DNA of 60,624 nt, the filler included, from Hausera hauseri (Eukaryota): NCBI GenBank assembly GCA_046269625.1. It is 10 parts of 10 records of this genome, joined end to end, with 100 filler letters (N's around TTAATTAATTAA, not from the genome) between each part and the next. Parts side by side here need not be neighbours in the genome. Positions count along the whole stretch, not along the records: positions 32,349 to 42,944 come from JBJURY010166642.1; 9 more parts are not named here. One strand, written 5' to 3'. A model generated the notes under the pieces. It saw only the letters and a list, made by a program, of their open reading frames with translations. It did no database searches and was not told the origin of the DNA. How positions within the stretch are numbered: position 1 is the first letter of the stretch; the number at the start of each line of letters is the position of its first letter. Both the position numbers and the translations under genes were made by a program. Shown piece after piece: positions 21,501 through 52,499 of this stretch.

Positions 21501-22521
21501 GCTATACATCCTTATTCATTAGGTGTTCCGATGAACTTGCGGTCAACCAATAATCGTTGCTTCCATGGCTTTATCACCCAATTTCCGATCCATGCTGAAC
21601 ATCATAAGCAAACCATTTGCGCAACCCCTCTTCAATACCAATTTTCAACTTAATTTCCGAAAAATTTATTTGTTATGACAAAATTACACAATTAGAAAAT
21701 AACGACAAATCAAATAAATAAACTGAAAAGAAAATTACCCAAATCTCTTACGGGTGAAGCGTTGACATTGACGTTATTTCCTTCTGCCATTATTGGTTAT
21801 AACGATAAGTTTTGTAATACTGCAATAAACTTTAATTTCTTGATAAATCATAATATGTAAATACCTAGTCTTCTTGAGGTCCAACAATGATTCTGTGGAT
21901 GTGAGAATGAATATCTACTGTTTTTGCGTGTTTTTGAGTGTTTATTGCACAGGTATTTATAGTGGGTCGTTCGACACCACAACGTTTGTTTCCATTTTTA
22001 GAAATGGAATTTTTTAATTTTCAAAATTGGAATGTTCGACACCATGTCGTTTCGTTCCATTTTTAGAAAATGGACTTTTAATTTTACATATTGTTTTTTG
22101 CATTTGCAATTTCAATTTTTTATAATTATTCAGGTTTATAATATTCAAAACTTATATTTTCTACAACCTATTCTACAACCTATTTTATAATTTACAGTTT
22201 TCAAATTATTCAATTTCGTTCTTCATAACATATCTTTCTTAATTTACTCATTTATTTTATAACGTATCTTTCCAGTTTACCCATCTAGAGCTAGGGATAC
22301 ATTAATTGTACAAAAGACAGGAAAAATAGGAATGTCCATCATGTGGGACTTAACATGTTAAAACAAAAGGAAATTGAGGCCAATTTTTTAATCAATTACA
22401 ATGTACATATTCATCACCAAAAATGTGTATCAATGAAGGTGTAGTTTCATCATCACAATGTTGTTTAAAGGTTCGTCATCACATCATCATCGCAATGTTG
22501 TTTAAGGGGTCGGAACAGTTC

Positions 22522-25245
22522 CACCACCATCTATTCGACCACTGATTTAGCTAAAGCATACCATCAAATACCGGTGGCACCCGACGACATAGAAAAAACG
22601 GCCGTCACTACTCATTTTGGTCTCTACGAATACCTGTTTATGTCATTCGGTTTGCGGAATGCCGCACAAACTTTTCAGCGGCACATTGATTCAATTCTTT
22701 TTGACTTCCCGTTTGCACATCCTTATATCGATGATATTCTGGTCGTTTCATCTTCGGCCAAAGAACATGAGGAACACCTTTGCGCAATATTCCAAAGTCT
22801 TAACCACCATAATCTCCAAGTCAATTTTGACAAATTCCATTTCTTCAAAAAGCGCATTAACTTTTTGGGCCACGGTATTTCACCAGACGGTCATTCTCCC
22901 CAACCAGACCGAGTCGAAGCTCTCAAAAACATCCAGTTGCCACGTACAGTCACCGAAATGCGCAGCTTCCTTGGCACACTACACTTTGTACATAAATATG
23001 TATCATATTGCTCCTAATTGACAGCATTATTCGCACACCTAAGCGGTGGCAAAAAAACATCAGCCAATGCAGTGGACACCTGAATTTGTTGACAAATTTG
23101 ATAAGCTACGCAAAGGAATTAAGACCGTCGATATTCTAGCTTTTCCCAAGCCTGATGCAGAACTTATCCTTACTACAGACGCGTCAACCACTGCAGTAGG
23201 CGCCGTACTCCACCAGATCTACAAGGGAGAAAACCAACCACTGGAATTTTTTTCTCGCAAGCTAACAGCACCTGAAACCAGACATTCCACGTTCGATCGA
23301 AAACTATTGGCCATCGTTCTCGCTCTAAAGCATTTCTCACACCTACTTGTCGCTCTTCATTTCACTATACAAGCCGATCACAAGCTCTTACTTAACATCA
23401 TGTCTATGAAACACCCTTCCACACTCCAAGAACGCCAAATATCATACTTATCGACATTTAACTTCGATATTAAACACATTAACGGGGTTAACAATTTAGG
23501 TGCTGATTTTTTATCTAGGTCGGTTAGTTCGACTAATTTGTCACCGATTTTTACGCAATATCAACTTCAACAGAACCAACCACCTCAGGACATGCTTGAT
23601 TCTTTCAAATCTTGCACAATCGTTGAATGCGTGGCTATAGACACCCACAAATCAAGCCATTCCGTAATAATTCTAGCACCATCATTGCAAAGGCAAGCAT
23701 TTCACAATGTGCATTCACTACACCATCCTGGTGCTAAAGCCACTTTTCGTCTACTCCATCAACAATTAATTTGGCCGTCAATGCGTTCTGATGTTCAGGC
23801 GTGGCTTAAGGAGTGTGTGGCTTGCCATTTAAAGCCACCACTGTTCCACTTTCCCTGCACATCGCGTTTCGAATCCGTGCATATCGACATCGTCGGCCCT
23901 CTTCCTCCATACAACGTCATCAATTCATTCTCACCATGATGGACCGTTCCTCGCGATGGCCAGAAGCCATCCCTCTGCGCAGCACAAATACCGACACTAT
24001 TGCTGACGTTTTCATTCTTACATGGATTAGCAGGTTTGGATCACCTTGCTTCATCATCACGAACCAGGGTCCACAGTTTGAATCCAACCTGTTCAAATCC
24101 CTTGTTAACTGATTGGGGATCCATCACATACATACTACGTCTTATCACCCCCAATCGAATGGCCCTTTAGAACGTTTCCATCGAACATGGAAAACGTCTC
24201 TAAGAATTCTTGCAGAGTCCAACACTAGTTGGACGAATCTTCTTCCGTTCGTTCTGCTCGGCTGGCGGAACATTCCGTCCACTTCTACAGGATGCTGACC
24301 TACTGAAGCCTTATTCGGAGCTCCTGTCCGATCATTATTCGAACTAACTGCCCTAGACGACACTCCGACGGATGAGACGATACGGATGGCGTAAAATCAC
24401 TTTGTCGATGTCAGCAAAAATTTGTTCTGCAGAATATTTCACAAAGACAAAACATACTTACCCAAAGATTTGTATTCGGCGAAATTCATATGGCTAATGA
24501 ATCAAGCGCCTTGGGGTTTCCAGCTGCGGTATCTGGGGCCCTATAAACTGATACAGCTACACTCGCACAACGTCATTATCTCTAAAGACGGCAAAGACCT
24601 TTTAATACACATTACCAACTTAAAGCCCGCTTTCTTTGTCGACGGCACCTTATCAACCGACACGTCAACCTGTTTTCTCACTCCTCCACTCCTTGCTATT
24701 CCTATATCTATTGCTACACCATTTCCACCTTCCTCTTCTGCGCCTAGTCCTGCTCCATCACTTTCTACACTTTCTACTTCTATTCCTACCACTCCCTCTG
24801 TATCATCTGCCTCTTCCACTATTTCACCCAACTCAATTCCAATCTCTACTCCAACTCTGTCCTCTTTTCCTTTATCCGCCACTACACCTTTCATCACTCC
24901 TTCGCCTTCTAACACTCTTTTCAATGCCTTTAACCATCCGTCTCCAACAATCCTTCTTCCTTCTTCGTCTTCTTCTATTTATCCCGCCTCATCTTCCACG
25001 ACACAACACCCCCACCAAAATCTAACAATTTTTCCCCAACCTCAACCTCTGCAAACAAACGAATCGCATAAACACACAACACGCAGAGTCACATTCAGCA
25101 AGTATAACAGGGAAAAATCAGTCGAAGGTACACAACGTCTTATTCACACTAAGCTCCACTGACACAAACCCTTTTCGTTTTGCGAATTTTTCTCTCTGTC
25201 CTTTTTTACTCTTCATAGTTTTAACCTTGCCACGAAGGTGGGTTA
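22522..25245 (+). mobile_element. Ty3/gypsy pol (5'-truncated RT, RNase H, integrase, S/T/P-rich tail)
   Basis: [55 protein letters not shown] and LERFHR. Frameshifted. Confidence 0.95.
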
Positions 25246-26349: not shown

Positions 26350-27306
26350 TTGCATGTGAAACGGATGTCGGTAAATGACTCTTGTTCCAAAGGAATCTTG
26401 TTCACCTTCACTCCCGAACCATTCGTTTGTACAGATATCACAGGCATTTAAATGTTTTCCGATGCCGCAAATCATAATTTAGAATTATTTGATGGATCAG
26501 CAGAAAGCAATAAATTCCACGGATTTTCGTCATTTTCATGCATGGAGTGCATTCTACATAATCAACGGATCGCTCTAAATTTTTTACTACCGATAAAATT
26601 CCACAAATTTACTATGGATAATTCTTAGAGAGAATAAGCGGTGGGACATAATCAAACATATGATAATTCATTGAAAACCACTTTAGTTATTTGTAACAAT
26701 ATTAAAATGAGGTGGCACTGAGTCCGATTTGAAAATATTTAAATAGCAAAAAACAAGAATTTCATTGCCTTCCGTATATTTGGATACCAGAGCTTTGTCG
26801 TCTGACGAACGTTTCGTATACAATGTCACGGACGGTATAGTATCTGGCATCACTGCAAAATCGCACAATTCTTATAATTTCGCTCCATAAGGATTAAACC
26901 CGTACAATAATATGAATCTTGCATCATCTTTCGTACGTTTAAATGTCACGCGTAGCAGTATTGAATAGTTAGATGGCAATACAGGAACTCGGTTATCTCC
27001 TTGGAATACCTTGCCAGTATACGGTGAATATTTGAATAATGCATATAATTCATCATTAAAAATGTATACATAGAAATTATCTGGCCAGTGAGATTTTTCG
27101 ACCAAGTTTATATGGAACAGAACCCTATCGTTTGTTTGTAATTCGCTCATTGTTTTTCCATTTCTAATTTCATAACGCATTACAATCGTCGTGTCATTTT
27201 TGCATGTTAGATATGCACGAAGGTGTACAAAACTGCAGAAAAGCAGAAAACTGCTTATCATCGTTCTATATATAAACTGGTTTAACTGAATTCTGAAAAT
27301 TGCCAT
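26350..27306 (-). pseudogene. Signal-peptide protein with beta-rich, possibly Ig-like domains; disrupted
   Basis: MISSFLLFCSFVHLRA signal-like N-terminus. ORFs 27306-26872 and 26868-26683 are in frame across one TAA, with spaced Cys and Trp residues. Continues with frameshifts to a GT donor near 26350. Confidence 0.4.
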
Positions 27307-27580
27307 TATTTTACACTACTTTTCTTTTCATTTTTGATATGAATATTTTGACTGTCTTCTCGAAATTTCATGACATGAGAATAGGAACATACTGGAATGT
27401 TCAATTAATTAAGTTCAATAATGTCTGGGTAAAATTAAAATTGTTCGTAAAGTTACTTCTGAAACCCGTTTAAGCCAGAGCTGTTTGATTCTTTAATCAG
27501 AATTCTCTAGTCTTTATTATCACTGAATTGTCGTCAACTTCTCCATTTTGATCTCGACGTCAGTTGATTTCGGTTTTTAA

Positions 27581-27685: not shown

Positions 27686-30600
27686 CCCCCCCCCGGTGGG
27701 AAAGTTGAAACTATGCAGGATAAAAGAAAAAGAGAAAAAGGCGCAAAACGAAAAGTGTGTTAGCTGAGCTTAGTGTGTATAAGGCGTTGAATACCTGCGA
27801 CTGATTTTTCCCTACTATATTGGCTGAATGTGACTCTGCGTGTTGTGTGTTTGTGCAGTGTGTTTGTTTGCAGAGATTTATGTTGGGGAAAAATTGTTAG
27901 ATTTTAGTGTAGATGTTGTATCGTGCGAAGATGAATAGGAAGTTGAAGAAGGAAGAGTGATTGTTGAAGATGGAGGGTTAAAGGTATTGAAACGAGTAGT
28001 AGAAGACGAAGGAGTGATGACAGGTGTAGTGGTGGATAAAGGAAGAGAAGAAAAAGTTGGAGGAGAGATTGGAGTTGTGTTAAGTGAAAGAGTTGAAGAA
28101 GATGATGATACAGAAGGAGTGGTAGAGATAGGAAGAGTGGTAGGAATAGAAGGAGGAAATGTAAGAAATGATGAAGCAAGACTAGGCGTGGGAAGGGCAG
28201 GTGGAAATGGTATAGTAATAGATGTATGGATAGCAGGGAGTGGAGGAGTACGTAAAGAAGCTAGCGTGTCAGTTGGTAAGGTGTCGTCGACAAAGAAAGC
28301 TGGCTTTAGGTTAGTGATGTGTACTGTGAAGTCTTTACCGTCTTTGGAGATGATTGCATTATGCGAGTGTAGCTGTAACAGTTTGTAGGTACACAGATAC
28401 CGTGGCTGGAAACCGCAAGGAGCTTGATTCTTCAGCCATACGAATTTGGCCGTGTACAAATAATCGGGTAGTTATGTTTTATCTTTGTGAAGTATCCTGC
28501 AAAACGAATCCTTGCTGACATCGACGAAGTGATTTTGCGCCGCCCGTATCGTCTCATCTGTGGGAGTGTCGTCTAAGGCGGTTAATTCAAATAATGATCG
28601 GACAGGTGCTCCGAATAAGGCTTCAGTCGGTGAGCATCCTGTAGAAGTGGATGGAGTGTTCCGCCAGCCGAGCAGAACAAACGGAAGATTGGTCCAACTA
28701 CTGTTGGACTCTGCGAGAATGCGTAGTGATGTTTTCAGTGTGCGGTGGAAGCGTTTTAGGAGGTCGTTCGATTGGGGATGATAAGGTGTAGTATGTATGT
28801 GATGGATTCCCAATCGGTTAACAAGGGATTTGAACAGGTTGGATTCAAACTGTGGACCCTGGTCCGTGATGATGAAACGAGGTGATCCAAACCTGCTAAT
28901 CCATGTGCCAATGAAAACGTCAGCTATGGTGTCGGTGTTTGTGCTCCGCAGAGGGATGGCTTCTGGCCATCGCAAGGAACGGTACATCATGGTGAAGATG
29001 AATTAATGACCGTTGTCTGGAGGAAGACGGCCAACGATGTCGATATGCACGGACTCGAAACGCGATGTGCAGGGAAAGTGGCATAGTGGTGGCTTTAAAT
29101 ACTTAGCTGTTTGGTATTTTTGGCATGCCACAACCTTAACCCATGCCTGCACATCAGAATGCATTGACGGCCATATTACCTGTGGGTGGAGAAGACGAAA
29201 AGTGGCTTTAGCACCAGGATGGTGTAATGAATGCACGTGGTGAAATGCTTGCCTTTGCAATGAAGGTGTTAGAATTATTACTGAATGGCCTAATTTGGAC
29301 GTGTCCAAAGCCACTCAGTCAACGATTGTGCAAGATTTAAAAGACTTAAGCATGTCTTGAGGTGGCTGGTTCTGTCGAAGTTGTTCTTGCGTAAAAATCG
29401 GAGAAAAATTAATAGAACTAACCGACTTAGATAAAAAATCAGCAAACAATTGTTAACCCCACTGATATGTTTAATATCAAAATTAAATGTCGACAAGTAT
29501 GATATTTGCCGTTCTTTGCGTGTGGAAGGGTGTTTCATGGCCATGATGTTAAGTAAAGGCTTATGATCTGTTTGTAGAGTAAAATGACGAGCTACAAGTA
29601 GGTGCGAAAAGTGCTTTAAGGCGAGAACGATTGCTAATAGTTCTCGATCAAACGTGGAATATCGGGTTTCAGGTACGGTTAGTTTTCGAGAGAAAAATTC
29701 CAATGGTTGGTTTTCTCCCTTGTAGATATGGTAGAGTACAGCGCCTACAGCAGTTATTGATGCGTCAGTGGTGAGGATGAGCTCTGCATCAGGCTTGGGA
29801 AAAGAAAAATATCTACAGTATTGATGCCTTCGCGTAGCCTGTCGAAATTGTCAACCAGGTCATGTGTCCACTGGATTGGCTGATGTTTTTTGCCGCCGCT
29901 TAGGTGTGCAAATGGAGCTGTTAATTTCAAGCAATATGGTACATATTTATGCACAAAGTGTAGTGTGCCAAGGAAGCTACGCATTTCGGTGGTTGTACGT
30001 AGCAATTGGATGTTTTTAAGGGCTTCGACTCGGTCTGACTGGGGAGAATGACCGTCTGGTGTGATAACGTGGCCTAAGAAGTTAATTGGTTTTTTGAAAA
30101 AGCCACATTTGTCGAAGTTAATCTGGAGATTATGGTGGTGAAGAAGTTGGAATATTGAGCGAAGATGTTCTTTATGCTGTTTTGCAGAAGATAAAACGAC
30201 TAAAATATCGTCGATATAAGGGTGTGCAAACGAGAAATCGGAAAGAATGGAATCGATGTGTCGCTGAAAGGTTTGTGCGGCATTTCGTAAACCGAATAGC
30301 ATAAATAGATATTCGTAGAGACCAAACGGAGTAGTTACTGCGGTTTTTTCGATGTCTTCAGGTGCTACCGGTATTTTATGGTAGGCTTTAGCTAAATCAA
30401 TGGTTAAATAGATGGTGTTGGAATTAAGGCGATGTAAGATATCCTTGATGAGTGGTAAAGGGTACGCATCCATGATTGTCAAGTTGTTTAGCTCTCGGTA
30501 GTCACCTCATGGTTGAAAAGTACCGTCTTTTTTGTACCACGTGTAAAGGTGATGACCAAGGAGATTTGGAACGACGTATTATGCCGGAGCGTTCTAGTTC

Positions 30601-32248
30601 GAGAAATTTGGCTTCTACGGCCTGTCTACGGCGAACTGACAGAGGCCGTACCTTTTGGCGTAATGGACGTTGATGCTGTGTGACTATATGGTGTAGGGTG
30701 CTGTTGGCAGAAGTAAAAGTACGATCTTTTTTAAGTACACGTGGATAAGATTTGTTAATGAATTGCTGTAATGTTGTAGGTAGCTGTGATAGATTCGGTG
30801 AAAGTGGATGAACGGTTTGAGTGGTAGCGGATGCGATATGTGAGTGGTTAAATGACGTGCAGTTAAGTGGTATTTGGTGTAAGATAATTGAATTGAAAAT
30901 AGTGTTGGCTGAGGTATTTTCGTCGAATGAGTTAGCGTTGGTGGCAGTACCACACTTATCGACATCAAATCTCGATCGTATATCAGTGTTATTGTTTAAA
31001 AATTTCCGAACTGAATTATTATTATGAAAATTCGAATTATTGTTATAAAAAATCGAATTATTCGCAGACTTTTTTAAGATTGACTTTCGCCCCACGGTCG
31101 ACTGCGCGGTAGTCAAAATGCTATTTACATGATCAGAAATGTCGCCAACGGTGCCTCTCCTCAAACATCGCTGGCTGCAGTCTACTAGTAGGTTATAGTG
31201 TGAGAGGAAGTCAGGTCCTAGGACTGCCGACTGGACGTTAGCGACTGTAAACGACCAGCGGAAAGATGTAGAGAAAGCAGGCAAAGTGAAAAATAATGTA
31301 GACGTGCTCGAGATGTGCAGCGGCTGGCCTGAAGCAATAAATAAAGGCTTAAGTTTGGATGGAGAGTTTTGTGTAGGAAAGGTTTGCGGTAATAGAGAGA
31401 TTGCGGCCCCTGTATCAATAAGGAAGTCAAGAGATTGAGTTGTAGAGGCAGTGATTGCTGCCTTTAGAGGAAAGACAGCAAAGGAAACATGTCGGCGTTT
31501 AGAATGTAAAAGAGTGCCTTTGCTAAAATCTGCCGTGACTTCTGGCGGCGAACTTAGTTTTTTTGAAAGGGTGAGTTAGGACGACTGTGAGAAGTGAAGG
31601 CAGTACGTCCGTCGTTCGTGTTAGATTTGAAGGTACAGCCAAGTGTATATTTACGTGCTTGATTTTTGAATCTCGCATGATAAATGCAAACCACGGTGTC
31701 CGAGGAAAACTTCTGGTTATAAAATTGGCAACCTAGGCAGCATTTCTGAGCATTAGTGTTGTATCTGCTGTGGCACTAGCAGATCGACGAACGCGCAGGC
31801 GATGGGGAGCGGTTTCGTGACGTAGAACGGGTACGGGAGGCGGCAAAACCCCCTCGTTGGGACAAAGACAATTCATTTAGTTTATTATTTATGTTGTTGA
31901 TAGTTGCCTGCAATGCAATATTTTTAGCACGTAGCTGATTTATCTGCCGTTCTATGGGAGTGTTAGTTGTTTGTATGTCGTTAGCAGCAACTGCTGCTGA
32001 AACCACGGGTTGTGAATTTATGTTTAGGACGTCGTATGTCCTATCGGCCAATTCGGCCAATTTTTCAAGCGGCGTGGAGTCGCCCACCACGGTAGGAAGG
32101 CTCCGGATTTGGATAGGTAGGGCGTTCATAAAGTAATGACGTAGAAGATCCGGGTTATGTTCCCTAGTGACGCCAAGAGTACGCAAGTGTGCTAATGAAG
32201 TACGTAAGAAGTCACTGGGTTTTTGCGTGCCCAGTGCATTTTCGTTAA
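27686..32248 (-). mobile_element. Ty3/gypsy element, near-complete gag-PR-RT-RH-IN; same family as contig E
   Basis: Gag 32248-31560, protease FLIDTGAAISL near 31400-31430, RT YPLP/DLAKAYH/YIDD, RNase H DRELLA/TDHKPL, integrase HIDIVG/TDQGPQFES/YHPQSN and an S/T/P-rich tail. The 5' end is cut by the contig edge. Confidence 0.95.
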
Positions 32249-32348
32249 NNNNNNNNNNNNNNNNNNNNNNNNNNNNNNNNNNNNNNNNNNNNTTAATTAA
32301 TTAANNNNNNNNNNNNNNNNNNNNNNNNNNNNNNNNNNNNNNNNNNNN

Positions 32349-33253
32349 GTCTTTCTAACATTTCGTATACTGTAAATCCGGTCACAATGAATTTATACAA
32401 GCAATGGTTTATATCTTCTTGGACTTCTATGAAATCTTTGTCCTTTTCGAGTTGTAACTTTGTGATTCCTGTAACATCGGGAAACGTATCTTTTACTTTA
32501 GTTCTAGGTGCAATTATTTTGTCTATAATCTCTTCTACATTTGTGCTTCGGATAGAGACTTCAATTGGGGTGTTACATCCATCGACCTTTTCCCCATAGT
32601 TTACGTCTAGAATTTGAGTATTCCTCCGTCTGGAACTAGCCTGAATGATTCTCCATTTCGTTCTATCTCATCCTCGGAGTGCTTCTGTATACACAATATA
32701 GGTGATAGTGGCCTCATCACTTCTGTTCGTAGGGTTAACTCGAACATAAGCTTGGTTGGATGTTCTGCGATTCTGAACTCCAAAGCGTAATTCATGAGTC
32801 TATAGCAACATAGCTCATATGTACTAAATTTCCATTGTTGCCCCTTCTAAGTACTACAGGATTGTCCTACGATTCTGTATTGTATTTCTCCATCAGCGAC
32901 ATGTACGTACAATTGCTGATGCGTTGGCTCATATGGAATCATGTCTCTTAATAGGTATGCTCGTGCATCTTTTGGGCTTCGCATTGCGTATAATCGGATT
33001 AGTCGATTTTCCTCTGTGCCCCCTTTCAATCTATTTGGTATCTTGTTTTCCTGATTGATTCCTACATAAGTTTTATTTTCCAGATTTGCTTCAATCTGGC
33101 GATATAAGCTTTTGGTTGTTGGTTTGAGAACTGTTACATGTTGCTGCAGGAAGTCGTCGATATCGTAATTGAGACTGTGCTAAGTTCTTCGCCTTTTCGG
33201 CCATACTTACTCTGCTGAAATAAAGATAAAGATCACTCCTAAGACATCATCAT
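32349..33253 (-). pseudogene. Accessory ORF with signal-peptide-like start, function unknown
   Basis: MMM / LGVIFIFISAE hydrophobic start, basic KRRR, then a long frame with scattered stops that includes ORFs 33029-32847 and 32795-32607. Confidence 0.45.
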
Positions 33254-33358
33254 TTTGAAACAAAACATTTTCGCTATCTGATGATAGGATAAGCCGATCT
33301 CTAATTGTCATGTTATGTTATCATAAAGTCCGTCTTGGTACCCTTTTACTTTTTACCT

Positions 33359-34610
33359 TTATTGATTTTGACACCGTTTATTATAGTTTTTGGAAACTAA
33401 GAAAATCGTCGCTGTTAATATGACAAGAACGAAAACTGACAAACTGAAGATAGCTATTATCGGCAAGTTATTCGGTTCAATAGAATTTTCCGTAGTAATT
33501 GTATTTTGGGTACTGGTATCCTTCATTGTCAAGGGTTCGTACTGTAAGAGTTTTATGTCTCCTACCTAGTGCGGTAATTTTAGTCACATAATCGTTTTGT
33601 GGTCGTAGGGATTTGCATTCATTTTTTGTGGTTATTTTTCCTTAAGATTACAGTTTGACTAGTATATAAAGTACGACATTCAATTTTAATTTTATAATCT
33701 ACTGTTTCTTCAACATAAAATACAATCTTATTAGGCCGCGCCAAAATTCTAACATGTATGTTTTCCAGTTCTTTCTCGGGCATTTTACTCGAAGTGACAA
33801 TATTAGTAATGAGAATTGTACTTGGAATGGTAGACTGCCTTCTCGTAGTCGTTGGGAGCGAGAGTTCCCATATTGCGATTTTGGGCGATATCCCCTCAGA
33901 TAAGTACTTGGCTTGTTTGGGTAAATATTATACAGATCAAATTGTAATTGATAGTTGTGTCCGAGCGGTAATCTGCAGCATGTAGTGGATCGTCATCGTG
34001 CAATAAAACAGTGTTCCGTAGGGGGAGTCGAGGTGCCTAGTGGTATAAATCGAATAGAAATTTGTCTGTCTCCTGGCAGCTCTATTTTGGATTTAATTCG
34101 AATACATTGGTTCTGGAAGTCTTTGGAGATTTCATTAATGTTATAATCGAGAAGTCTTTTAAATGGATCGGTATTTCGGACTATTTTGTCCGTCTAGGCT
34201 TGGTTTGTGCCGTTACGTTCAGATATTTTTATTTCAAGTTCGGTAATTATATAGGCTTGGGCTCCAGGTAGATTATAGTAAAACATTTGAAACTTGTATC
34301 GATATGTTCGTTCAAACTCTAAGTCACAACATTTCTTATGGGCTCCATACGAAAAATCACACGTCTTCATCTCGATACCAATTTTATTCATAAATATTAT
34401 TTGAAACTTTACGTGGTACTGAACTAGATCGTTTGCCTTGAACCAGGCACAGGATTTGCTCCAATCCATATCGTATACTCTGAGAGACTGCAGGTTTTGG
34501 ATATCTCTCCATCTTGCCGCATATTGTTGCTTTTCGGTCAGAGTTATTGATCCGATTTTCGGTATGTACGAAGCTATTAACGATAGAGCAAGAACTATTT
34601 GTACATAGGA
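33359..34610 (-). pseudogene. Type I membrane protein fused downstream of integrase
   Basis: Hydrophobic YVQIVLALSLIASYI is in frame with the integrase tail. Two related C..C..CCxL...Y...F domains, a Thr/Ser-rich stretch, TM LPIIAIFSLSVFVLVILTATIFLV and a short tail follow. Confidence 0.6.
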
Positions 34611-34679
34611 TACCGGTCTTGTTACTATCGACGATGTTTTCTTCTCTCTCTTGGTTTGTCTCGGATTTTCTTTACTTGA

Positions 34680-35998
34680 ACGCAAATTATAGCGTTTAAT
34701 TGGCCTTATTTCCGTTTTGACCGCTCTCTGTATGGATACGACCTCTTCTTTGTCATTTTTATTAATATAGACTGTAGTTGGTATGGTTCTGATAATCTCG
34801 TAAGGTCCTCTGCCGGTACGAGTGAGTTTTAAAGATGTGCCTTTCTTCGCAACCGGATAATGCACATAAACTCCATTTCCTTTCTCCAGGTCATGTGGTT
34901 TAGCCTTCTTATCATATTGCCTTTTAAATTGCTCTTGATATTCTTTGGACAATTCTTTGGCTATTTCCCAACATTTGTGTAGCCTCGTCTGCAATACTTC
35001 AGTGAAATATTGTTCTAGATCATCTGTTTTCACTGTATACGGTATCGTTCCTAAGTCTGTGGGTAGTACAGCTTCTCTACCATACATCATAAAAATGGAG
35101 TAAATCCTGTTGCAGGATGTGTTGTAGTGTTTATGGCAAACTGTGTACCTTCTAAAAATTCATTCCAATCTTTCTGGTTTTTCGCAACTACTGTTAATAA
35201 GATTCGTATAACGATCGCGTTCGTCCGTTCGACCATTCCGTTACATTGCGGGTGGTAAACCGTTGCGGTTAATCGTTCAATTTCAGATATTTTGGTAATC
35301 GTTTCGAATAGTTCACTCGTAAAGTTCCTTTCTCGGTCTGTCAGAATTTGTTCAAAAGGTTCGCACCTGCATATTATTTTCCTTACTACGGCCTCTGCCA
35401 GAGTCTCAGCCTTTTGGTCCACTAATGCCATCATTTCAACGAAATGATTTAATCTATCTATACATGTCAGAATGTACTTTTTATTTTTATGAGTTGTAGG
35501 TAACGGATCTACAATATCCATTGACATCGCTTGCATTGGTCTATCCGGCTCATTTATTGGTTTAAGTTCGGAGATGTAGTTTTCGATTTTTTTCAGTTTG
35601 GTTGCGCATACTTCGCAGGCGCTTACCCAATTATTTACACTAATATATATGCTTGGCCAATAATACTTATTTAATATCCTTTCTAATGTTTTCTTCCATG
35701 ACATGTGTCCAGCTAAGTATGAGTCATGTTTGGCCATTAGTATTTCCATGCGTAATCCCTTCGTTATGACTACCAACTTCCGTCCTTTTCGCTCATAATA
35801 CAGTACATTTTCATGGCTCGCGTCTCTTGTTACGGAGTATTTGTGACCATATTTTTGCAAATGTTTCCGTAATTGGTGTCCTTTTAGTGTTATTTCTTTT
35901 TCTACGAACTCAATGATTTGTTGTATAACCTTGTCCTTCCTCTGCTCAACAGAAATTTTAATCGCTTTATCCAACGCTAGAGCTCGTTGTCTGTCCAT
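34680..35998 (-). pseudogene. Integrase
   Basis: HDSYLAGH...CEVC zinc finger, SMDIVDPLP, LTDRERNFTS, YHPQCNGMVER and GPY module (GRGPYEI). Confidence 0.95.
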
Positions 35999-36010
35999 CA
36001 GTTCTTTAAG

Positions 36011-37330
36011 CTATGCTTTTCTCGTTATAGTAATTTTGCTCGTTTTAGTTTTATGCCTTGATAGTGCATCTGCATCGACATGTTTGCTTCCGGGTTTGTA
36101 TTGAAATTCAATGTTATACCATGAGATCTCTTCGATCCATCGATTGAGTCTATATGTTGGGTTATTTTCTCTACATTTCAAAGTTGTAACCGCTTTGTGA
36201 TTTGTAACAATTATAATTTTCTGACCGTAGACGTATACATTAAAGTGTAGTAGAGCTTCTTTTACAGCTAACGTTTCTAGTTCGGTGATCGAGTAATTCT
36301 TTTTGGACTTCTTTAGTGACCGTCCTCCATATGCGATTGGATGTTCTAGTTCTTCATCCTCTCGTTTTTGAGCTAAATCATACCCAATGCCTTCTTTGCT
36401 GACACCTGTTTTAATTATAAACGGCAGGTTAAAATCAGGATATCTTAAAACAGATTCGCTAGTTAAGATTTTCTTCATTTCTTCGAATGCTCTTTGTTTT
36501 ATGTCCGTCTATTTCCATTTGATTCCCTTTTTAAGTAATTGGTATGAAGGTACATTTATTTTTGAATTATCCGGTACGTAAGTGGCGTAATATCCACATA
36601 AACCTAATCAATGCCTCAGCTCCTTTTGGTTCTGGGGTTCCATACAATCCGATATCTTACTTAGCAATGATTTATCCTGTTTCGATCCGCCTTCTCCAAA
36701 TATATGTCCGAGATAGGAAACAGCGTTTTGGGCCCATTTACATTTCTTCGGATTCAATTTCAGTTCAGCTTGCTCCAACCTCATGAGCGTATACTCAATA
36801 TCCTTTAAATGCTCTTCTTCTGTTTTCGATGCAGTCATTACGTCGTCCAGGTACATAAACGCGTGTTTCAGTCCCATTAGCATCTTGTTCATCATTCGAG
36901 TAAAGATGGCTGGTCCAGTAGTTATTCCGAATGGCATGACATTGAATTCATATACACCATCGTGTGTTTTGAACGCATTTTTGTAACGACCTTCTTCTTC
37001 TATTTCTACTTGCCAATATCCTGATTGTAGATTGAGCGTGGTAAACCATTTGGCTCCGGAAAGTCTATCTAGGGCTTCTTTTACCGATGGCAGTGGGAAA
37101 GAATTTTTCATCATAAGTGTGTTTAATGCTCGATAGTCAATACAAAATCGGTGCTTTGTAGTACCTTTCTTCTTAACCATGAGTATAGGTGAGTACCAAA
37201 ATCTATAGTTTGGTTTAATTATGTCGGCCTTTAACATTTGTTTGACTTCTTTTGTTATCTCAGGCCTTAATGAGTGGAGGTAGGATACCGTTTTGGCATC
37301 TTTTAATCTTCTAAGTCTATTTTGTCATTG
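36011..37330 (-). pseudogene. Reverse transcriptase and RNase H
   Basis: YLDD at 36842-36853. RNase H NYSITELETLAV, TNHKA and HVDADALSR. Confidence 0.95.
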
Positions 37331-37494
37331 GATCCCGGCTTTTTCTTAAGTGGAATTGTTAGACTCAACGCTTTTGCTCTGCCTATGCCTTCTTCATCTT
37401 TTGCGATGACTGAGCTATAATGACAAAGTAACCGTTAAAATCGGCAGTATGCTTCTGGTGAAAATTTAGTTTCAACGTGCGGTGGGAATTCGGC

Positions 37495-38394
37495 TCACTT
37501 GTACGGTTTTTCTTTAACGATTATTGATGATACTCCATATATGTGACCTAGGGTGGTATTGGCATACAATTTGATCGGAGTTGGTGCATTATGGGCTATT
37601 CTAATGGGCACACGGCCCGTCGATACCCTTGTTAATACGTTATTGAGCACGATGTTTGGGTCTAATGATTCCTCGGGTTCAAAATACACTGGCTGGTCGT
37701 CGTATTGACTTATTTTGACATATATTAGTACCTTGATTCTCGGCGAAATATTCTCGTCCACTGGAATCCATACTTCCCCGAATTGCCTATCTTTAGTGGT
37801 TTTGACTCCTTTTATCGGGCCGAGTTCTATTAATTTCCCCGCATGGAAGTCTATCGGAGTATTGGGTAATTGTCTCAACAGATCGCATCATAGGACTACA
37901 TCATATGTTAATTGCTCCGTTACTGAAAATTTGTGACGAAATGATTGTCTCATTATGTGGATTTCTGGTTTCCATCGGAATTTGCTTTTCGATGACTGTC
38001 CGAAAACTCCAATACTCTCGGGATCTGTTGTCGGAGGTGGGTATAAATGTTTCCTTAGAAACTGCGGTATCGAATCGTGCTTAATCAGTGATATATCGGA
38101 TCCCGTGTCTATTAGTGCATAGAATTCCCAATCTTCCAACTGAATTTTCGCGAAGGGTCTACCTTCGATTACCGTGCCATAGTGATTTGGTGCTATTTTT
38201 GGGCCTTGGATCCCTGTCACCTTATAACCATTAATTCTAACTTTAGTAGTTGCAGCTGGCTGGTCGATCAGCTGTCTTAGCTCTGCGTTAGGGTACATTT
38301 CATTGTTCCTGCAATTAACGTCTCCCGTTTCTTGACTTCTAATTGGCGGCTGTATTTCCCGGTCTCCAAAATTCCGCACCTCATGGTCTCTCAA
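37495..38394 (-). pseudogene. Aspartic protease and post-protease region
   Basis: ALIDTGSDISLI (DTG at 38101-38109). The VL*CDLL segment corresponds to the usual ILGxDFL motif with a premature stop. Confidence 0.9.
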
Positions 38395-38403
38395 AAATGT
38401 TGA

Positions 38404-40640
38404 TCAAAATTCATTGGACCTGGGTATTCTAGGTGAATAAATTATTCCCTGGTCGTCGACCGCTGAACAATGATATGAAACGGATGTTCTCCTTGTTTCG
38501 CGCACTTTACGCAATATAACGTAGTATTTCGTTCCCTCATATGGATCTTCCAGACTGAGCGGCTTCCTATAGATACCCGTTTGATATGAGCTCATAGACT
38601 CTTTCTCATAGTCTTCATATATAGGTGCAGTTGGGGGTAATATTGGCAAGGTTGGTTTTATAACTGAGTAGTTTTTGTTTCTATTTGTTCTCGTAACGGC
38701 GTCTCCTGCCTTAGGCTCGTCATTGTCAGAGTTATCTCTTCGTGTCTTGACATTTACGAATTTACGTCTGTAACTAAAAATGTGTCTCTTTTTACGTTTT
38801 CGATTATAATAGCCGACATGTCGCTCCACATCTGTCTTCCACCTACTTTCTTCGTAAGCCTTTAAAAATTTGTTGAAAGGTGTGATAATAGCCGTTAAAA
38901 TTTTGCATGCGAACTCTGTCAAGGTGAATATCTCATATTTATTTATAATCGCTCGAATTATCGCTTTAACCAGTTGAATTAAGAAATAGATTGCTAAGAA
39001 TCCGGATGTGGCTTTTCCGAATATCAGAAATCTTCCCCAAATTTTATACAGTATTTCCCATTTCGCTTGATAACGTAAATCCTCTAGTATTGTATGCATC
39101 GCTCTATTTAATTCATGCGTACGTTGACGTGGGAAAGCGAGAAATTGTCTAAATGCCTCTACTTCTTTTGGCCGGTAAATACATTTTGCTGCTGTGTCTT
39201 GAAACTTATCATCGGTTATTCCTTTTATTAGATTTGTTCCTGTTAACATAGTGGGCGGCGTAACTATTCCACAGTTCGGTAAACTTACCCAATCGATCTC
39301 GTTACGTTTAAACATTGGTTCTCCCAAACTGGTCATACAATTTTTCAGAACTGTCGGTTGGGTAGAGTTTGCCAGCAATACTCTCATAATTGGCGTCACT
39401 AATCTCGGTATGTCCCGATATATTAATGGAACTTCTTGAATGCACCTTTTCTCTTCCACATTAATAGGTACATCCTTCTTTTCGCACTCGTAGATCAGCA
39501 GAACTTTACCGGTCATTTGTCCAAAAACACTTTTTTTCATCGGAATTATTGGTGACGCTAACTCGGGATTGGCATATATTAAAGCTAGTTTGGTTCTCAT
39601 AACTTCTACGTTTAGTTTGCAGTCGTTTGTTATCATCTTGTGGTATAACTCAGTTATTCCGGCTTGTCCCTTGTAGTAAAAATAATCATCTCTATTTTTC
39701 AAATAATCTTCAATTAGAATATCTTGAGTTTCCTGCTTGAACGTTCTGATATTTATCTCGGTTTCTGCTACAAAGAATGCTTCATAATTGGTGGCGTAAA
39801 TTACTACGTCACACCTTGTGAAGACATCTTTCTTCACAAACTTCAACCCTTTGGTATCGGAAATTAATATTGTAGGTGTAGGCTGTTCCGCTACATTCTC
39901 TCGCATTTTTGAGTTCATCTCCGTATTACTAACGTAGTGTTTCCCTGTTGTTTTGTTAAATTTAAGTTCTTTAATTTTAATAAAATTGCAATCAGTCTTG
40001 GCTGGAGGTTCCCAGATTACTATTGAACTTCTAAAAACACAGGTGCCATCCTGGATGTGACACTTTTGGTTTCCCGTATAAAGCTATGAAACATCACCTT
40101 TTGTATGTGCATTTCGGTTTCGTAGAAATCCACAACCACTATGTTTGATTCCAATCCTTTTCCAGTATCGTATTCTGCACCATGGCAGTGACCAGTATTC
40201 ATATCTAATCTTCCTGCTGCTACTTTATATGTTCTGATTATCTTCCTTTGCTGCATTTCTAATTCCATGCCGTCCCATTTCAGCCTGCCTGTTTCTCTAG
40301 CTTGCTTACAATATTGGCGGTCCAAGTTCATTGGGATTAGTGGGGTCGTCGGCTTGATTATAGATGAATGCCCGTGTATTAACCACAATGGAAAATACTG
40401 CGAGATCGTCGCAACATGCATTCTATCCCATCCAATGCGACTAACTCTCGTTGCTGATAGAGGACATATCTTTTTTCTTTCGTTTCTAGTTTATGTGGTC
40501 TCGCATCTTTGCACATTTCCAAACCTATCAATGAATATTTCTGGCCAAGTCTGAATTTGTCGCAATCATATATGGTAACTGCTCCCATTTGCCTTATAGA
40601 CATCACCACAGTCAGGAAATTAATTAACCAGTTTGATTTG
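38404..40640 (-). pseudogene. Chuvirus-like (Jingchuvirales-type) envelope glycoprotein
   Basis: Signal WLINFLTVVMSIRQMGA then IYDC, YSL..LEMC, ECMLRRSRSIFHCG..GHSS, GHCHG, CHIQDGTC..IWE..DC, LYHKMITNDCKL...LALIYANP, GKVLLIYEC, CIQEVPL..VTPIMRVL, IY..EVEAFRQFLAFP, and a TM near 38945-39040. Motif order matches chuvirus glycoproteins as I recall them. Two internal 1-bp frameshifts. Confidence 0.75.
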
Positions 40641-40659
40641 TTTCCTCGATTACTTCCGG

Positions 40660-42944
40660 TTAAGTTTCGTACACGTCTTCGAATCTACTATTATTACTAA
40701 CAAACGGTCCGTTCTGTCGTCCTTCATCTCTTTCGAATAGTTTGGTCCAATCTACTTTCCGGGGTAATTTTCTAGCGGCCTTTCGCGCTAGACTAGTGGC
40801 CTTATTAAATTCATTTTCTCCGGCTTGGTTCGTTCTAATGGCCAAGTATAATAATACTTTCGGCAGTTCTTCTATGGTGTTCTATACCATAAATTTCTCG
40901 ATCACCAATTCATTGCTTAAGGTGCTTCTCGATAATTTGTTGCGGAAATTTTTCATTGTTCTGGCTGCATTCAATATAGATTTCTCCTTTTGGTCTAGTA
41001 TATCGCCATAGAGACTAGAGTGGTTTACTATACGTATCAAATTTTTCATGAGTTCATTTAACTCTTCGTTTTCCGTGTTGAAGGTTGGTATGGACATTTG
41101 CCATAATTCTCTAATTAGATCTCCATTATAGTCCATTTCTTCCCGTGTTTTTCGCGGTCTACCAACAGGATGCTTCTGTTTCGCTATTACCGATGCGGTT
41201 TCACTAGGTGGTACTAAATTCTTATCATACTGTTCTTTATCCTCATCTGTTTGTAAGTATTCAAAATACATTGCTGCGTCTCAAACGCCGATAATCCGTC
41301 CTACACACTGATCAATTTTGGCTTTTCTTGTGTCTTCTTCAACGTCCATTACCGGAAGTTTGGCGTAACAATGTTAATAACTGACATAATTCTTCGGCTA
41401 GAATCAGTCCTCTTTCTTGATAACTTGTTAGTTCATAGGCTACGTCTCTTTGCCATCTTTGCACAAACTGCGACTTGTCGGCTTTCTCCGCTTCCGTAAG
41501 AGCATATTTATTTCTATAGGTCTCGAGCTTGTTCAGTAAATCGTCTAGTCTTATTGCTCTCTGTTTGGTTTTAATTCAATTTTCTTCGATTTGGCGTATC
41601 TGAGGCAACAATTTTCTTATCTTCTCATCGTTAATTTCCTCCATTTCTACCATTAGATGCTCTAAGTCATACATTTCATTAATTTTTAAGTCCGAATCTA
41701 TTGCATCCGATAATTTTTTAGAAATCTAGCTTCTTCGACTCTGAGATGGTGGTCGTCTCTGATCTTTATAAGGTTGGTATGACATCTCTGGTCCGTTCCG
41801 ATCATAAATTCCTGTGGGTCGTGTAAAAATTTTATTGCCTATTCTATCGCTGATCGGTGCTCCGTACAAACGTCCAACGTTTCCAGATCTTGAATCGAGA
41901 TCCCTTTAATAGGTTTCGTTGTCAAGTGCTGAATTCCTTCTAGGCGGACGTTTCTTAGCCTCGGATAGAAGTTACAAGTCATTTTTCGCTTCTGTGTAAA
42001 GTCTATTTCTTCAATCATTTTGAATATATTTTTCAATATCGTCATCTCTTGTTTCCTTTTCATAAAGTTCAATTGACATAATGCATTAAATTGATTCCTA
42101 ATATCTACTTCCGCTCTCATTATATCCAGATTGCTTGCATTTTCTTCTAATTGTTTCTTTACTGTAGGCTCACTTTCTGGGAACTCTTTTATACGGTCTT
42201 CTACTAATTTGCTCAGTCTCGTTATTACCCGAGACCATTCGTCTAGCTGGTTGGCGATATTCGTCTTCGTTAATATTATTTTGTCTAGCATTTTATATGC
42301 GTCTTCTAATTCATCATCTGGGCCTTTGATGAAACTAATAATCCGGTATGCGTAGTTGAATTCATCCTTATATTCATCAATTTCAAGGGTACATGCCTTA
42401 ATTGTGTTTTATGTCTCGTCGTTGTCCAATTTCGTGATTATATTTCTCAAACTATATATCTGTGACTTTTTTTTATTTTCGATGTTAATACGATTTTCCA
42501 GACTTGTATATTGTTTTGATGCGGTGGAGGCAATTTTTATCATCTCCATTAATGGTGGGATATCTAGCGAACTTATACCCAACAATTCCAAATCCACTTG
42601 GTTTTGTTCCCCGACCGCTTTTTCTTTGAGCCTCCTAACCATTTCGAATCAGATTTCGTCAATAACGCGCTCCAAGTTACGTGTTACCCTTTTTAGTTTT
42701 GGATTAACTTCTAATGTATTTCATAATGCTTGGGCCTTTTTTATTCCTGCTTCTACACTCTCTGTATGTCTATCCCACGCTTCAGGGAATTTTACTCCAC
42801 TTTTTATCCATGCTTCTAATGCATGTTTCCGTTTTACTAGCGTTTCTGGAGGAATTTCCTCAGGTTGCCCTAGGTCTGTAGCTTCGCTCAGTTTTCCTTC
42901 ACTATATAATTTCATTTTCTTGTATAATCTTTCTATAAATTGTT
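40660..42944 (-). pseudogene. Long coiled-coil, charged ORF in the gag position; identity unknown
   Basis: ORF pieces starting at 42915, 42642, 42291, 41271 and 40845 all share one frame. Rich in E/K/L/I heptads, with no CCHC knuckle. Confidence 0.6.
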
Positions 42945-48399: not shown

Positions 48400-51300
48400 T
48401 GCTTTTTGGTTACTGTAGGGTTTTATTGAAGTCAAGGTATCTTAGGTGCACTCCTGGTGCGACTCGATACCGGTGTGGCAGGGGTTTGGTTGCGTATTAT
48501 CGTACGTTCTGTTTCAGGAAGTATGGGCGTTAGAGTAATGTGTATTTCAGTTTGGACCGTGGTCGGGTCATATTCTACGGGAATGTCCATATTGAATGGA
48601 TCAAATTTGTCGTAGTTTTCTCAAAGCTTATCTACTTCTGACATACTTGGTCCGTCTTGTTGGATATGATCTTCCGTATCGGAATCATGATATCCGAATG
48701 CGGGTTTTACGTTCGACAATTGGATTATATGTTCATCATTGTCGCGTAATATTCTCGCATTGTGCTCGGTGATTTCTATGAGCTTGTAGAAACCCGTGTA
48801 GTACGGTTCAAACCCGTGTCTTTGTTGGCTGTTTTGCCAGACAAAAAAAGCTTCTTGTAAATTCTTCTGCACGAGTGGTTTTTTGTAATTGCTGTAGAAT
48901 GCAGCGTTCGTGTCTATTAACAGGAAATGCTTCCGAGCTTGGTTGAGGGCAGGGATGAAAGTTATTTTCTCGTTGCTCACCAGATCTTGCGGGAATGTGA
49001 GATTGGCACTAAATAATAGTTGTGTTGGATAGGCATCAGTGCTAATGTTCGGAGTGTTTCTCCACCTAATGACATAATGGGTAATGCATCCAGCCAGTTT
49101 TTGTTATCGTGGCTTAGGATTCCTAAGAATGATTTTAGTGTACGATGAAATCGTTCGATCAAACCAATCGCTTGTGGATGGTTGGGCGGTATATGTATGT
49201 GCTTTGAACCAAGCGATTTGGTCAACTGTTTAAACATGACTGATTCGAATTTGGTAATCGATCTGTTATAATGTTTTCAGGTACTCCAAACCGAGAAATT
49301 CACGTATTTACTAATACAGCCACAACGCTTTGCATTGTTATTTGGCGGATTGGAATGGCTTGGGGCCGTCTTGTTTTCCGGTCGATAATGGTTAGGATGT
49401 ACTGATATCCGTTACATTCGGGAAGTGGTCCTACTATGTCCATGCAGATAGTCTCAAACAGTGAGCCAGTAGAATAATGTAGGATTGGTGGTTGTATAGT
49501 ATGGTTGGTTTTATACTGTAGCAAAGCGAATATTCTTTTGTCCACCACTTTAAATCGCTTAGCATATGAGCCCAACAGACTTTACTGCTTAATAGGTGAG
49601 CTGTGGCTTTTGATCCAGGATGATGGATGTTGTGAATGGTGTCAAATGCCTGTTACCGCAGGTTTTCTGCCAGAATTGGGCGTGGACAACCATTGAGAAT
49701 GGTATTGTAGTGTATCCCATCCTTTGTGTCAACTGCTTTGAAGAACGTAACATCGTCTTCATGTGGAGGGTTCGATTGCAGACACTCTTCCGTAAAAATT
49801 GGATAAAAGGACACTGTCGATATCCCAGTTCTGGAAAAAAAATCAGCAACTGTGCTATCTTTTCCAGTTATGTATTCTATCTGGAATGAAATTTCCGATA
49901 GAAATGAGATGTGTCGCTCTTGACGAGGCGATTGGTTTTTCATACTAATCATGTCACTGAGTGGTTTGTGATTCATGCGGATTGTGAACACATGTCCTTC
50001 GAGTAAATGTCTGAAGTGTTTAACGCTGAGAATAATTGCTAGTAAATCTCGGTCGAAAGTTGAGTAATGTTGCTTAGCCGAATTGAATTTGTGGGAAAGG
50101 AATGCAATGACAGCATTTTTTCATTGGATTGATTGGACAACTATTGCACCTGCAGCGATGGTGGATGTGTTTGTTATTAAGATAAACGGTGCATCGCGTT
50201 TAGGATTATACAATGTAGGTATGTGAAGAAGCGCCGTTTATGCATTGGCAAATGCCTGTTGAACATCATCTGTCCAGTTTACCTTAAATTTTTTGTATCC
50301 TTGGCTTGGTGCAGATAGAGGTTACAGGATTTCTGAGCATTGTGGAATGTAACGATAGCAGAAATTGATTGTGCCAAGAAAGCTGCGAAGTCCACTCACT
50401 GTGGATGGCTCCGGTATTTGTTTGATGGTTTCTAGCCGCTCAGGAAGAGGACTGTGACCATGTGGTGTTAACCTCAGTCTGAGATATGCTGCTTCAGTTT
50501 TAAAGAATGAACATTTGTTTATGTTCACCTGTAGATTGTTATCATTCAACCTATGAAAGACGTGTTCGAAGTGTGTTTTGTGAGTCGCTTCATCAGGTGA
50601 TGCCATCAATATGTCATCTATATATGGGATTGCATAAGGCATGTCGATGATGGTTTGGTCTATGTGGCGTTGGAATGTTTGACTTGCATTCCCTAAGCCG
50701 AATGTCATGCGTAGGTAGTCGAACAAACGAAAATGAATTATTATTACTGTCGTTTTTGGAATGTCTTTGGTAGGAACTGGGATCTGATGGTATGCCCTTT
50801 CAAGATCGATTGTGCTGAATATTGCGGCACCATGTAGGCGATGCTATATGTCGGTTTACCAACGGTGTTGGGATGAATCGTGGATGGTGACATAATTTAA
50901 CATTATATAGTCATCAGAAGGCCGGTATGAACCGTTCTTTTGAGAACCATGTGCAATGTTGATGCACATGGTGATGTAGAGCGGCGTATTAGGCCAGCTT
51001 CTTCAAGGTGTCGGAATTCGGCTGCCGTAGCTGCTCTCTTGACAGGGTCAAGCTCCCTCTGGGGTTGTCGAATCGGTCGATCACATGAAGTGACGAAAAA
51101 ATGTGATGTTTTCACCTCTTTCTGTATTGTTTATGTTGAGTGTTTCGACAAGTTAGGGTATTGCGCTTGGAGCAGTGGTGCGATGTCAATGGGATTCGTG
51201 ATCTTTATGCCCGTGACCTCGTTTTTGGTTAGCGTGAATGTGGGTGGAGGTAATGGATTGCTCGTGCTGGTAAGTTGTTGATTTCGGCAATCAACTGTGA

Positions 51301-52499
51301 GATCGTAGTGATCTAGGAAGTCAGAACCAAGGATTGGTTGCATGACATCGGCCAATATGAATGACCAAGCGTATGGTCGGCCTTGTAGGTGAAATTGTAG
51401 GTACAGTGTACTTGTGGTTTCTATGCGCGTGCCATTGGTAGTTTTGAGTGATGCATGCGAGACCACAGTAGGTCTAGCCTATGCGCTAGGTATCAGCGAT
51501 AAAGCTGCACCAGTGTCGATTAAAACGTCTAGCTGTTTCGAGATGTCGGAGTGTAGTGGCTCCGCCTCGAGGGTGAAGATAGCATCGACAATGCGTTCGC
51601 TATTTGTATACGGCAGTTGTGGTGATTGGGTTTCCAGCCGATGTGCCGTTGGTCGTCTGAGCCCATTTTGTTTTTTGACGGCTTGTGAAATTTGCAGTCG
51701 GATCGACAGGCTTTTGCGTCTGGACCGAAATGGTTGTGATAAATGCAAGTGTCTTGCATTTTTACTTTTGCCGATGACTTGTCGAATTGGCAACCATGGT
51801 AGCATTTGTAGGCGGATTCGCCAAATCGAGTGTGGAAATGGCAAATTTTGGAAAATTTGCCTTTCTTTCGCTTAAGGAATTGGCGCCGAGATTGCGGTTT
51901 GTCTATGTCTGGCGGATTCTTGTGCTTTACAAGTGCTTACAATGTGGCAATGATAGTGTCCAGCTGATTTTACTATGTCATTGTGACGGAATGGATATTT
52001 TCCGTCAGTGCGGATTCTACAGTGCCTTTAGTGCATTCGTATATTTTGTCGGCTTTTGATGCCATATCGTCCAAAGTGGTATTGGGCGGGAATAGCACCA
52101 ATGCCGCTTGAATTTGATTGGGCAAACTACTTAGGAAGTAGCGCCGTAGTATGCGCTGCTTGGTGTGGAGGTCCAATTCAGCATTGCTCAAGTCTGAGCG
52201 TAACTTGTGAAGCAGAGCAAACGGTTTCATATTGCCTGTCTGTCGCTTGGTGAAGACCAAGTTGAACTTGTCCTGTTGGGATGGCAGATATTCTTTGCAT
52301 ATGGCTGCTTTGATTTTGTCGAACGGTTTTCATCTGACAGTAGCGTGTCCAGACCCGTTATTGCTGCAAGCGTTGTTGGCTTCAGGTATTGAATGAGTAT
52401 TAAGGCATTGTCTAAATGGCCGGTGATGCTGCATTGAGTAGCCCATGTTTCAAACACATGGAACCACTTCAATGGCGTTCCGTCCAAACCTATGAAGAA
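48400..52499 (-). mobile_element. Ty3/gypsy element gag-PR-RT-RH-IN, decayed
   Basis: Gag with CIYHNHFGPDAKAC, PR VLIDTGAALSLIP, RT FGLGNASQTFQR/YIDD, RNase H STFDRDLL/HKPL, integrase MDIVGPLP/HPQAIGLIERFHR. Confidence 0.95.

Follow-up and report, generated by a model that had tools for sequence, protein, structure and literature searches.

A predicted FN3-like surface-protein gene follows the integrase of a decayed Ty3/gypsy element with a chuvirus-like glycoprotein upstream of pol

Envelope-bearing gypsy elements of invertebrates were catalogued by Chary and Hayashi (PMC13524379), whose main text treats 1512 such elements as gag, pol and one fusogen. GAG-ENV-POL errantiviruses with an HSV/gB-type ENV are reported there from Platyhelminthes, Nematoda and Bryozoa. 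The paper states that other ORF arrangements were not searched, and calls the transmission mechanism elusive outside Drosophila. For eight of the nine flatworm GAG-ENV-POL elements, its supplementary file 1 (rows 1445–1453) lists no LTR or primer site after a 3-kb extension past pol. The missing LTRs fit the presence of extra 3′ sequence or unannotated genes, without showing them. The words 'fibronectin', 'attachment', 'accessory' and 'exonuclease' are absent from the main text; 3′ ORFs may appear in the figure supplements or sequences. Here we describe an element from Hausera hauseri in which a second predicted surface protein is encoded behind the integrase.

The window, a stretch of 60,624 nucleotides analysed as a whole, consists of short contigs strung together via N spacers, and the element occupies the contig at 32349–42944. 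The nine spacer sites (for example 4035–4134 and 32249–32348, each made up of an N run, TTAATTAATTAA and another N run) join unrelated contigs, and ORFs or repeats that span them are artefacts. The minus strand of contig 32349–42944 is coding-like along its entire length, and represents a decayed Ty3/gypsy element in which env precedes pol. Stops and frameshifts are found throughout. The domains of pol lie in the order PR-RT-RH-IN (Pfam RVP, RVT_1, RT_RNaseH, Integrase_H2C2 and rve). On the minus strand, the aspartic protease region was located at 37498–38403 (RVP, 8.7e-08), reverse transcriptase and RNase H at 36014–37324 (RVT_1, 1.5e-34; RT_RNaseH_2, 1e-29; in-frame stops), and integrase, comprising H2C2, core and C-terminal part, at 34700–36010 (Integrase_H2C2, 2.9e-16; rve, 1.6e-11; frameshift near 35090).

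A search for pol relatives among 1163 candidates of 451–2000 aa, a range that excludes short integrase fragments, gave 14 hits. The integrase matches showed 28–37% identity, the closest pol relative being at 37%; three of the 14 were named gypsy and none BEL. No BEL-type Pfam family was matched in the 16 element pieces scanned. As judged by hit names and Pfam, pol is gypsy-type rather than BEL/Pao. The same 16 pieces, from the 10.6 kb of element present, gave no Pfam match to BIR, BCL2, MATH or ankyrin.

Upstream of pol, at 38407–40684 on the minus strand, lies a Monjiviricetes-type (chuvirus-like, gB-type) fusion glycoprotein, G, in three frames. Its matches to Pfam PF24664 (2.7e-30 for 38407–40083, then 8.4e-05 and 1.2e-05) cover profile positions 5–603 of 653. 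G and the protease region share a frame, with a single stop between them (38404–38406) separating the adjacent ORFs 38404–40083 and 37888–38403, an arrangement that fits one long polyprotein of the kind known from Burro (PMC6431247). ORF fragments in the gag position fill 40663–42942 (minus strand), a broken region cut by the contig end, in which no family, gag included, was matched in Pfam or NCBIfam; these fragments are long and probably helical. A basic stretch and a hydrophobic segment precede G (40580–40684, minus strand) and resemble the junction between integrase and surface gene described below. No LTRs were found: the contig contains no repeat longer than 28 nt, and coding sequence reaches both of its ends.

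A second copy of the element was not detected in the window by blastn, and tblastx gave distant pol of unrelated elements only. Two copies of another gypsy-like element, 84–88% alike, lie on adjacent contigs at 22469–25170 (plus strand) and 27750–31780 (minus strand), their integrases followed by a long extension rich in Ser/Thr/Pro; a gag fragment at 16591–17151 is related to this element, and a more distant element lies at 48600–52330. Just 3′ of the copy at 27750–31780, an ORF of 147 aa (26875–27315, minus strand) has a start resembling a signal and does not look like part of a retroelement in any obvious way. Two 98-nt direct repeats (85%) at 8390–8586 (plus strand) are in frame inside a 262-aa ORF (7928–8716), and a (GAGT)n microsatellite at 1154–1280 grades into GAGG and GAGC units.

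The gene behind the integrase, at 33308–34625, encodes a predicted type I membrane protein and, like all its parts, lies on the minus strand. It is a broken copy whose four in-frame pieces match an unbroken homologue, P0001, and no introns interrupt its 1.3 kb. The layout is signal, domain 1 (D1), domain 2 (D2), Thr/Ser-rich linker, domain 3 (D3), short stalk, transmembrane helix and tail. The original prediction, that the integrase frame runs past an RYNLRS motif into a signal-like segment, was borne out: a stop-free frame of 321 codons (35159–34197) contains the C-terminal part of integrase, RYNLRS, a basic stretch, the signal and D1. The signal-like hydrophobic segment occupies 34557–34619, in frame with the integrase C-terminus. 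D1 (34215–34490) has four Cys residues, a C-x-W motif and an L-x5-Y motif, and is identical to P0001 at 32/92 positions. D2 (33879–34154) likewise has four Cys residues and L-x5-Y, is identical at 34/92 positions, and continues in the frame of D1 across stops at 34196 and 33995, the latter within D2 itself. The Thr/Ser-rich stretch (33787–33861), recognized from its sequence and matched by a T-rich counterpart in P0001, had been predicted to be a stalk before the transmembrane helix; it is present, but as a linker leading into a third beta domain. This domain, D3 (33534–33759), absent from the original prediction, may be FN3-like, has two Cys residues and is split by a frameshift near 33630, the two halves being covered by the second and third pieces matching P0001.

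The predicted transmembrane helix was found at 33395–33466 (hydropathy 2.27); in P0001, the hydrophobic segment spans 424–455 and the helix of the model 435–466. The signal and transmembrane calls rest on hydropathy and conservation. The short cytoplasmic tail (33308–33394) is also as predicted, but runs past 33359, and ends at 33308 with YDNIT and a stop. Its final residues (YDRIT in P0001) form what we take to be a YxxI-type sorting motif. Two ectodomain stops (34196 and 33995), three frameshifts (near 33885, 33630 and 33535) and two internal tail stops show that this copy is dead. These seven lesions in 1.32 kb compare with 11 in 6.06 kb of G plus pol (P 0.03, from a hand count in which pol and G are probably undercounted), and the surface gene may therefore have been lost first.

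The stretch in the frame of D1 and D2, with X at stops, was compared with 1.84 billion representatives using phmmer, which returned two hits at E up to 0.001. The first, P0001 (E 5.7e-44), is an unbroken protein of 479 aa, predicted from a single ENA contig of 4939 bases. The second, P0002 (E 6e-5), was rejected as a homologue, being an unrelated repeat protein with 62 residues matched. Residues 10–479 of P0001 are collinear with the four window pieces (34625–33879, 95/249 identical; 33888–33631, 35/86; 33626–33534, 14/31; 33535–33311, 27/74), and the score of each piece was reached in 0/2000 shuffles. All ten ectodomain cysteines are common to the two proteins (4/4 in D1, 4/4 in D2) at about 37% identity; two cysteines in or after the transmembrane helix are not conserved, and the tail has diverged apart from its last residues. 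A search of 3340 candidates of 263–839 aa recovered no homologue besides P0001 itself, and P0001 matched none of the 14 pol hits, whose size range would exclude any short integrase fragment beside it. On the strength of this alignment, the surface gene is real and was conserved over a long time.

The signal segment is identical to P0001 at 17 of 21 positions, versus about 36% in D1–D2 (binomial P 3e-5, with boundaries picked after viewing the alignment). Conservation so far above that of the mature domains suggests that the segment has a second function, for instance as a processing site or as an RNA element. The predicted relationship between D1 and D2 was seen as well, clearly in P0001 (0/2000 shuffles) and weakly in the window copy (31/2000). 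In P0001, similarity of D1 to D3 was not significant (1464/2000), and that of D2 to D3 was marginal (74/2000).

AlphaFold2 models were built from two-row alignments, with mean pLDDT of 44.8 for P0001 and 51.3 for D1–D2 of the window copy, and both of these low-confidence models show beta sandwiches. Foldseek matched the full P0001 model best to fibronectin, gp130, LEP-R and LIF-R (top E 6.6e-6), and the D1–D2 model to IL-17RA, IL-17RC, fibronectin and tissue factor (E 2e-4 to 9e-4, best 2.1e-4). In VIA comparisons, where Z below 8, as for all values here, may reflect a common arrangement only, D1 of the P0001 model aligned with an FN3 chain at Z 7.7 (rmsd 2.3, 79 aligned), the window D1 model with FN3 chains at Z 6.3–6.4, and D2 alone with fibronectin, in one row, at Z 5.4 (rmsd 2.9, 77 aligned). 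An unbiased VIA search of 48161 chains placed bacterial DUF3244 Ig-like proteins in the top two rows (Z 6.4–6.6), tied with FN3 (6.3–6.4), and later rows were mostly FN3. D3 has seven predicted strands (P0001 327–399) in the full model, with pLDDT mostly below 50.

The L-x5-Y motif is the tyrosine corner that precedes strand F in FN3 domains. Each of the three domains, in P0001 and in the window copy alike, carries it where it would be expected (in D3 as LSPQTEY and LRPQNDY), the bare pattern also occurring at three to four other sites in each protein. Sequence searches gave no support: Pfam fn3 (PF00041) did not match P0001 at E up to 10 or the window read-through at E up to 1, solved-structure (PDB) sequences gave no meaningful match to P0001 at E up to 10, and NCBIfam returned nothing meaningful for P0001. 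The predicted resemblance to FN3 strands thus holds in the fold searches on the two low-confidence models and in L-x5-Y, but not in Pfam or in the PDB sequence search. Going by the models, an FN3-like fold, with a seven-strand beta sandwich in D1 and D2, is well supported for D1, fairly supported for D2 and tentative for D3. The receptor hits tie with plain fibronectin, so they point to no particular receptor family.

P0001 matched no Pfam family of fusogens, and no fusogen was among the fold matches listed; homology of the surface protein to gD or gH/gL was not found in Pfam, Foldseek or PDB sequences. No specific viral relative emerged: the viral fold library gave phage and other FN3/Ig-repeat proteins with TM-scores below 0.2. 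The best Atlas value for P0001 was 0.88 with recognition 1885, below the threshold of 2300 and a lead only; the nearest named clusters, at the same lead level, were animal FN3 membrane proteins (0.85–0.87).

We then considered whether the gene belongs to the element. It shares strand and frame with the integrase, with no gap or LTR between them. Its coding-strand A content is 0.37, versus 0.36–0.42 elsewhere in the element. A 16-nt purine run at 34652 was rejected as a polypurine tract ahead of the gene, such a run being expected by chance (0.78 expected; found in 53% of 300 shuffles). Downstream, a broken ORF (32350–33311, minus strand), cut by the contig end, has a first ATG that overlaps the stop of the surface gene (ATGA). 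Its end is weakly DEDDh exonuclease-like (Pfam RNase_T, E 0.016; PDB small RNA degrading nuclease 1, SDN1, E 0.069); for this fragment, Atlas gave unnamed clusters at 0.95 for the first part of the ORF, and gag families at 0.80, a value often reached by chance. Because there is no gap or LTR, strand and frame are the same, introns are absent, composition is similar and the ATGA overlap is present, the surface gene very probably belongs to the element. No LTR was found, so the end of the element is not fixed; this was counted against membership, as was the heavier damage to the gene than to G plus pol. The original prediction had tied its case to folded domains, to conservation and to the place of any LTR boundary: folded domains were predicted at low confidence through the Foldseek and VIA matches to FN3, one conserved homologue was found in P0001, and no LTR boundary lies between integrase and surface gene.

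The same data could be read as a captured passenger, either a host receptor cDNA or exon block, or as a host gene that abuts the element by chance, with no role in the element cycle. P0001 could itself be a host gene, the named Atlas neighbours of P0001 are animal FN3 membrane proteins, the element is unbounded by an LTR within the contig, and lesion density in the gene exceeds that in pol. We consider this quite improbable. The 1.3 kb are intronless and P0001 is predicted from a contig; the gene is in frame with integrase, is dead in step with the element and has element-like composition, and a conserved host gene should show more than one relative among 1.84 billion representatives.

The gene had further been predicted to be fused after integrase, and in the window copy this is the case. 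The part beyond the integrase core of two of the 14 pol hits aligns to the 35159–34197 frame (P0003, E 2e-5; P0014, E 0.002). A run of 18 stop-free codons has a chance probability of 0.34, or about 0.11 once the shared frame is counted; loss of the integrase's own stop would be needed in addition. As a conserved trait, fusion found no support: P0001 starts with its own Met, nine residues ahead of the matched part and with two more Met close by, and none of 1449 candidates of 523–2000 aa was a fused form, which is weak evidence. We state fusion for the window copy only. Three readings fit: a difference between the two lineages, an incomplete prediction of P0001, or continuity that arose by decay in the window copy.

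The last case corresponds to a gene that belongs to the element yet is always a separate ORF, with its own start or a spliced mRNA. The Met of P0001 stands directly ahead of the signal, pol hit P0016 has an RYNLR motif 14 residues short of its C-terminus, two stops occur in another frame at the signal start, the window copy has many frameshifts, and the post-pol ORF of Cer1 is expressed via a spliced mRNA (PMC10309623). We nevertheless think it unlikely. No in-frame ATG is present from 34800 to 34560, a simple pattern found no acceptor-like site there, decay would have had to introduce several lesions independently in a span of about 55 bases, and the common frame of G and protease fits a single polyprotein. 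A separate ORF would concern expression, and is compatible with a function in attachment or at the host surface.

In receptors and adhesion proteins, FN3 domains serve as binding modules. We hypothesized that the envelope-bearing Ty3/gypsy element used the product as an accessory protein for attachment or adhesion, acting beside the fusogen, a tentative assignment that we hold at slightly under even chances. It is put forward because of the FN3 fold matches together with this binding role, and because an intact, collinear homologue keeps all ten ectodomain cysteines and the terminal YDxIT. The surface protein would come last in a long polyprotein ordered gag-like, G, PR-RT-RH-IN and surface protein; in the P0001 lineage it may be a separate ORF. 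An internal signal would re-enter the ER, where signal peptidase would free the part comprising ectodomain and transmembrane helix, and the terminal YxxI motif would sort it to the membranes from which particles bud. Displayed beside the gB-type fusogen, it would bind target cells and leave fusion to G, in a herpesvirus-like split; in herpesviruses, receptor binding and fusion are spread over several proteins (PMC4690880). According to the same source, most fusogens both bind the receptor and carry out fusion by themselves, and the published gB-type errantiviruses have three ORFs (PMC13524379), both of which count against a split. The assignment is also weakened by the single homologue, which starts with its own Met, by the low-confidence models and VIA Z values that are all below 8, by the DUF3244 Ig-like folds that tie with FN3, and by the lesion count of the gene and the unfixed end of the element.

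The product could instead act at the surface of the expressing host cell rather than on particles, as a cytokine-receptor-like decoy, a receptor blocker or a cell-contact molecule favouring the carrier cell. The Foldseek matches include receptors for D1–D2 and for the full model alike, and two disulfide-rich FN3 domains with a short tail that lacks a signalling domain would be the layout of a decoy. Class I cytokine and IL-17 receptors are characterized by WSxWS and by a SEFIR or other signalling tail. P0001 lacks WSxWS and its tail of about 30 residues is below SEFIR size; moreover, the receptor hits tie with plain fibronectin and no solved-structure sequence matched at E up to 10. In favour of this reading, BIR and BCL2 are among the host-manipulating domains found in Burro elements (PMC6431247). 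On balance, we regard action at the host surface as a minority prospect. Returning to attachment, its fullest version would be a two-component entry system in an invertebrate gypsy lineage, with a class III fusogen and a separate host-derived FN3 attachment protein, both cut from one polyprotein that crosses the ER membrane ahead of pol and again after it, and a translationally coupled exonuclease behind; taken as a whole, this scheme is doubtful.

The closest described systems differ from this locus in several respects. The errantiviruses of PMC13524379 share with it a Ty3/gypsy pol and an upstream gB-type (chuvirus-like) glycoprotein, whereas here a second type I membrane protein follows the integrase; curation in that paper demands intact ORFs, and the present element has stops and frameshifts throughout. 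The original prediction had held that envelope-type proteins on both sides of pol would be very unusual; the upstream position of such a G proves to be published already (PMC13524379), while the second surface gene remains unusual. In Burro (GYPSM1), a giant gypsy element of planarians, env is placed between gag and pol in the same frame; host-like domains occur as well, along with accessory ORFs that could also be read as subdomains of the polyprotein (PMC6431247). Its env is gypsy-Env-like, with homology to baculovirus, retrovirus and paramyxovirus F, and not a Monjiviricetes glycoprotein as here; Burro exceeds 30 kb and has BIR, BCL2 and MATH domains; of the present element 10.6 kb is at hand, and the 16 pieces scanned matched none of these. 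An FN3 protein is not described in the available text of PMC6431247.

Extra ORFs after pol, including small transmembrane proteins and DEDD-type exonucleases, are known as ORF3 of Juno and Vesta in bdelloid rotifers (PMC5408684). There the types are alternatives that differ per family (env, TM, GDSL, DEDDy), and 'fibronectin' is absent from the available text of PMC5408684; here, G, an FN3-like membrane protein and a possible exonuclease occur in one stretch. Cer1 of Caenorhabditis has a non-env ORF after integrase in one long polyprotein frame, but its product, CERV, is a nuclear RNA-export protein made from a spliced mRNA and not a surface protein (PMC10309623). Anakin combines a chuvirus-like G with an LTR retrotransposon, as here, but is BEL/Pao rather than gypsy, and no second surface gene was seen in the portions available of its descriptions (PMC7642597; PMC12440569, PMC13524379). 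Herpesvirus entry, in which the class III fusogen gB works with separate binding partners, offers an analogy only (PMC4690880).

In the literature searched, with thin coverage of subscription journals and Repbase reports, we found neither an FN3 surface gene in a retrotransposon nor a retroelement that assigns attachment and fusion to separate proteins. A second surface protein that is conserved and has a host-receptor fold would be a candidate for target-cell choice or for blunting host signalling, and judging from the present case, the region 3′ of pol may have gone unread in elements with env before pol. Compared with known systems, a gB-type env before pol is established (PMC13524379), and what is apparently new is a second, FN3-like surface gene behind the integrase.
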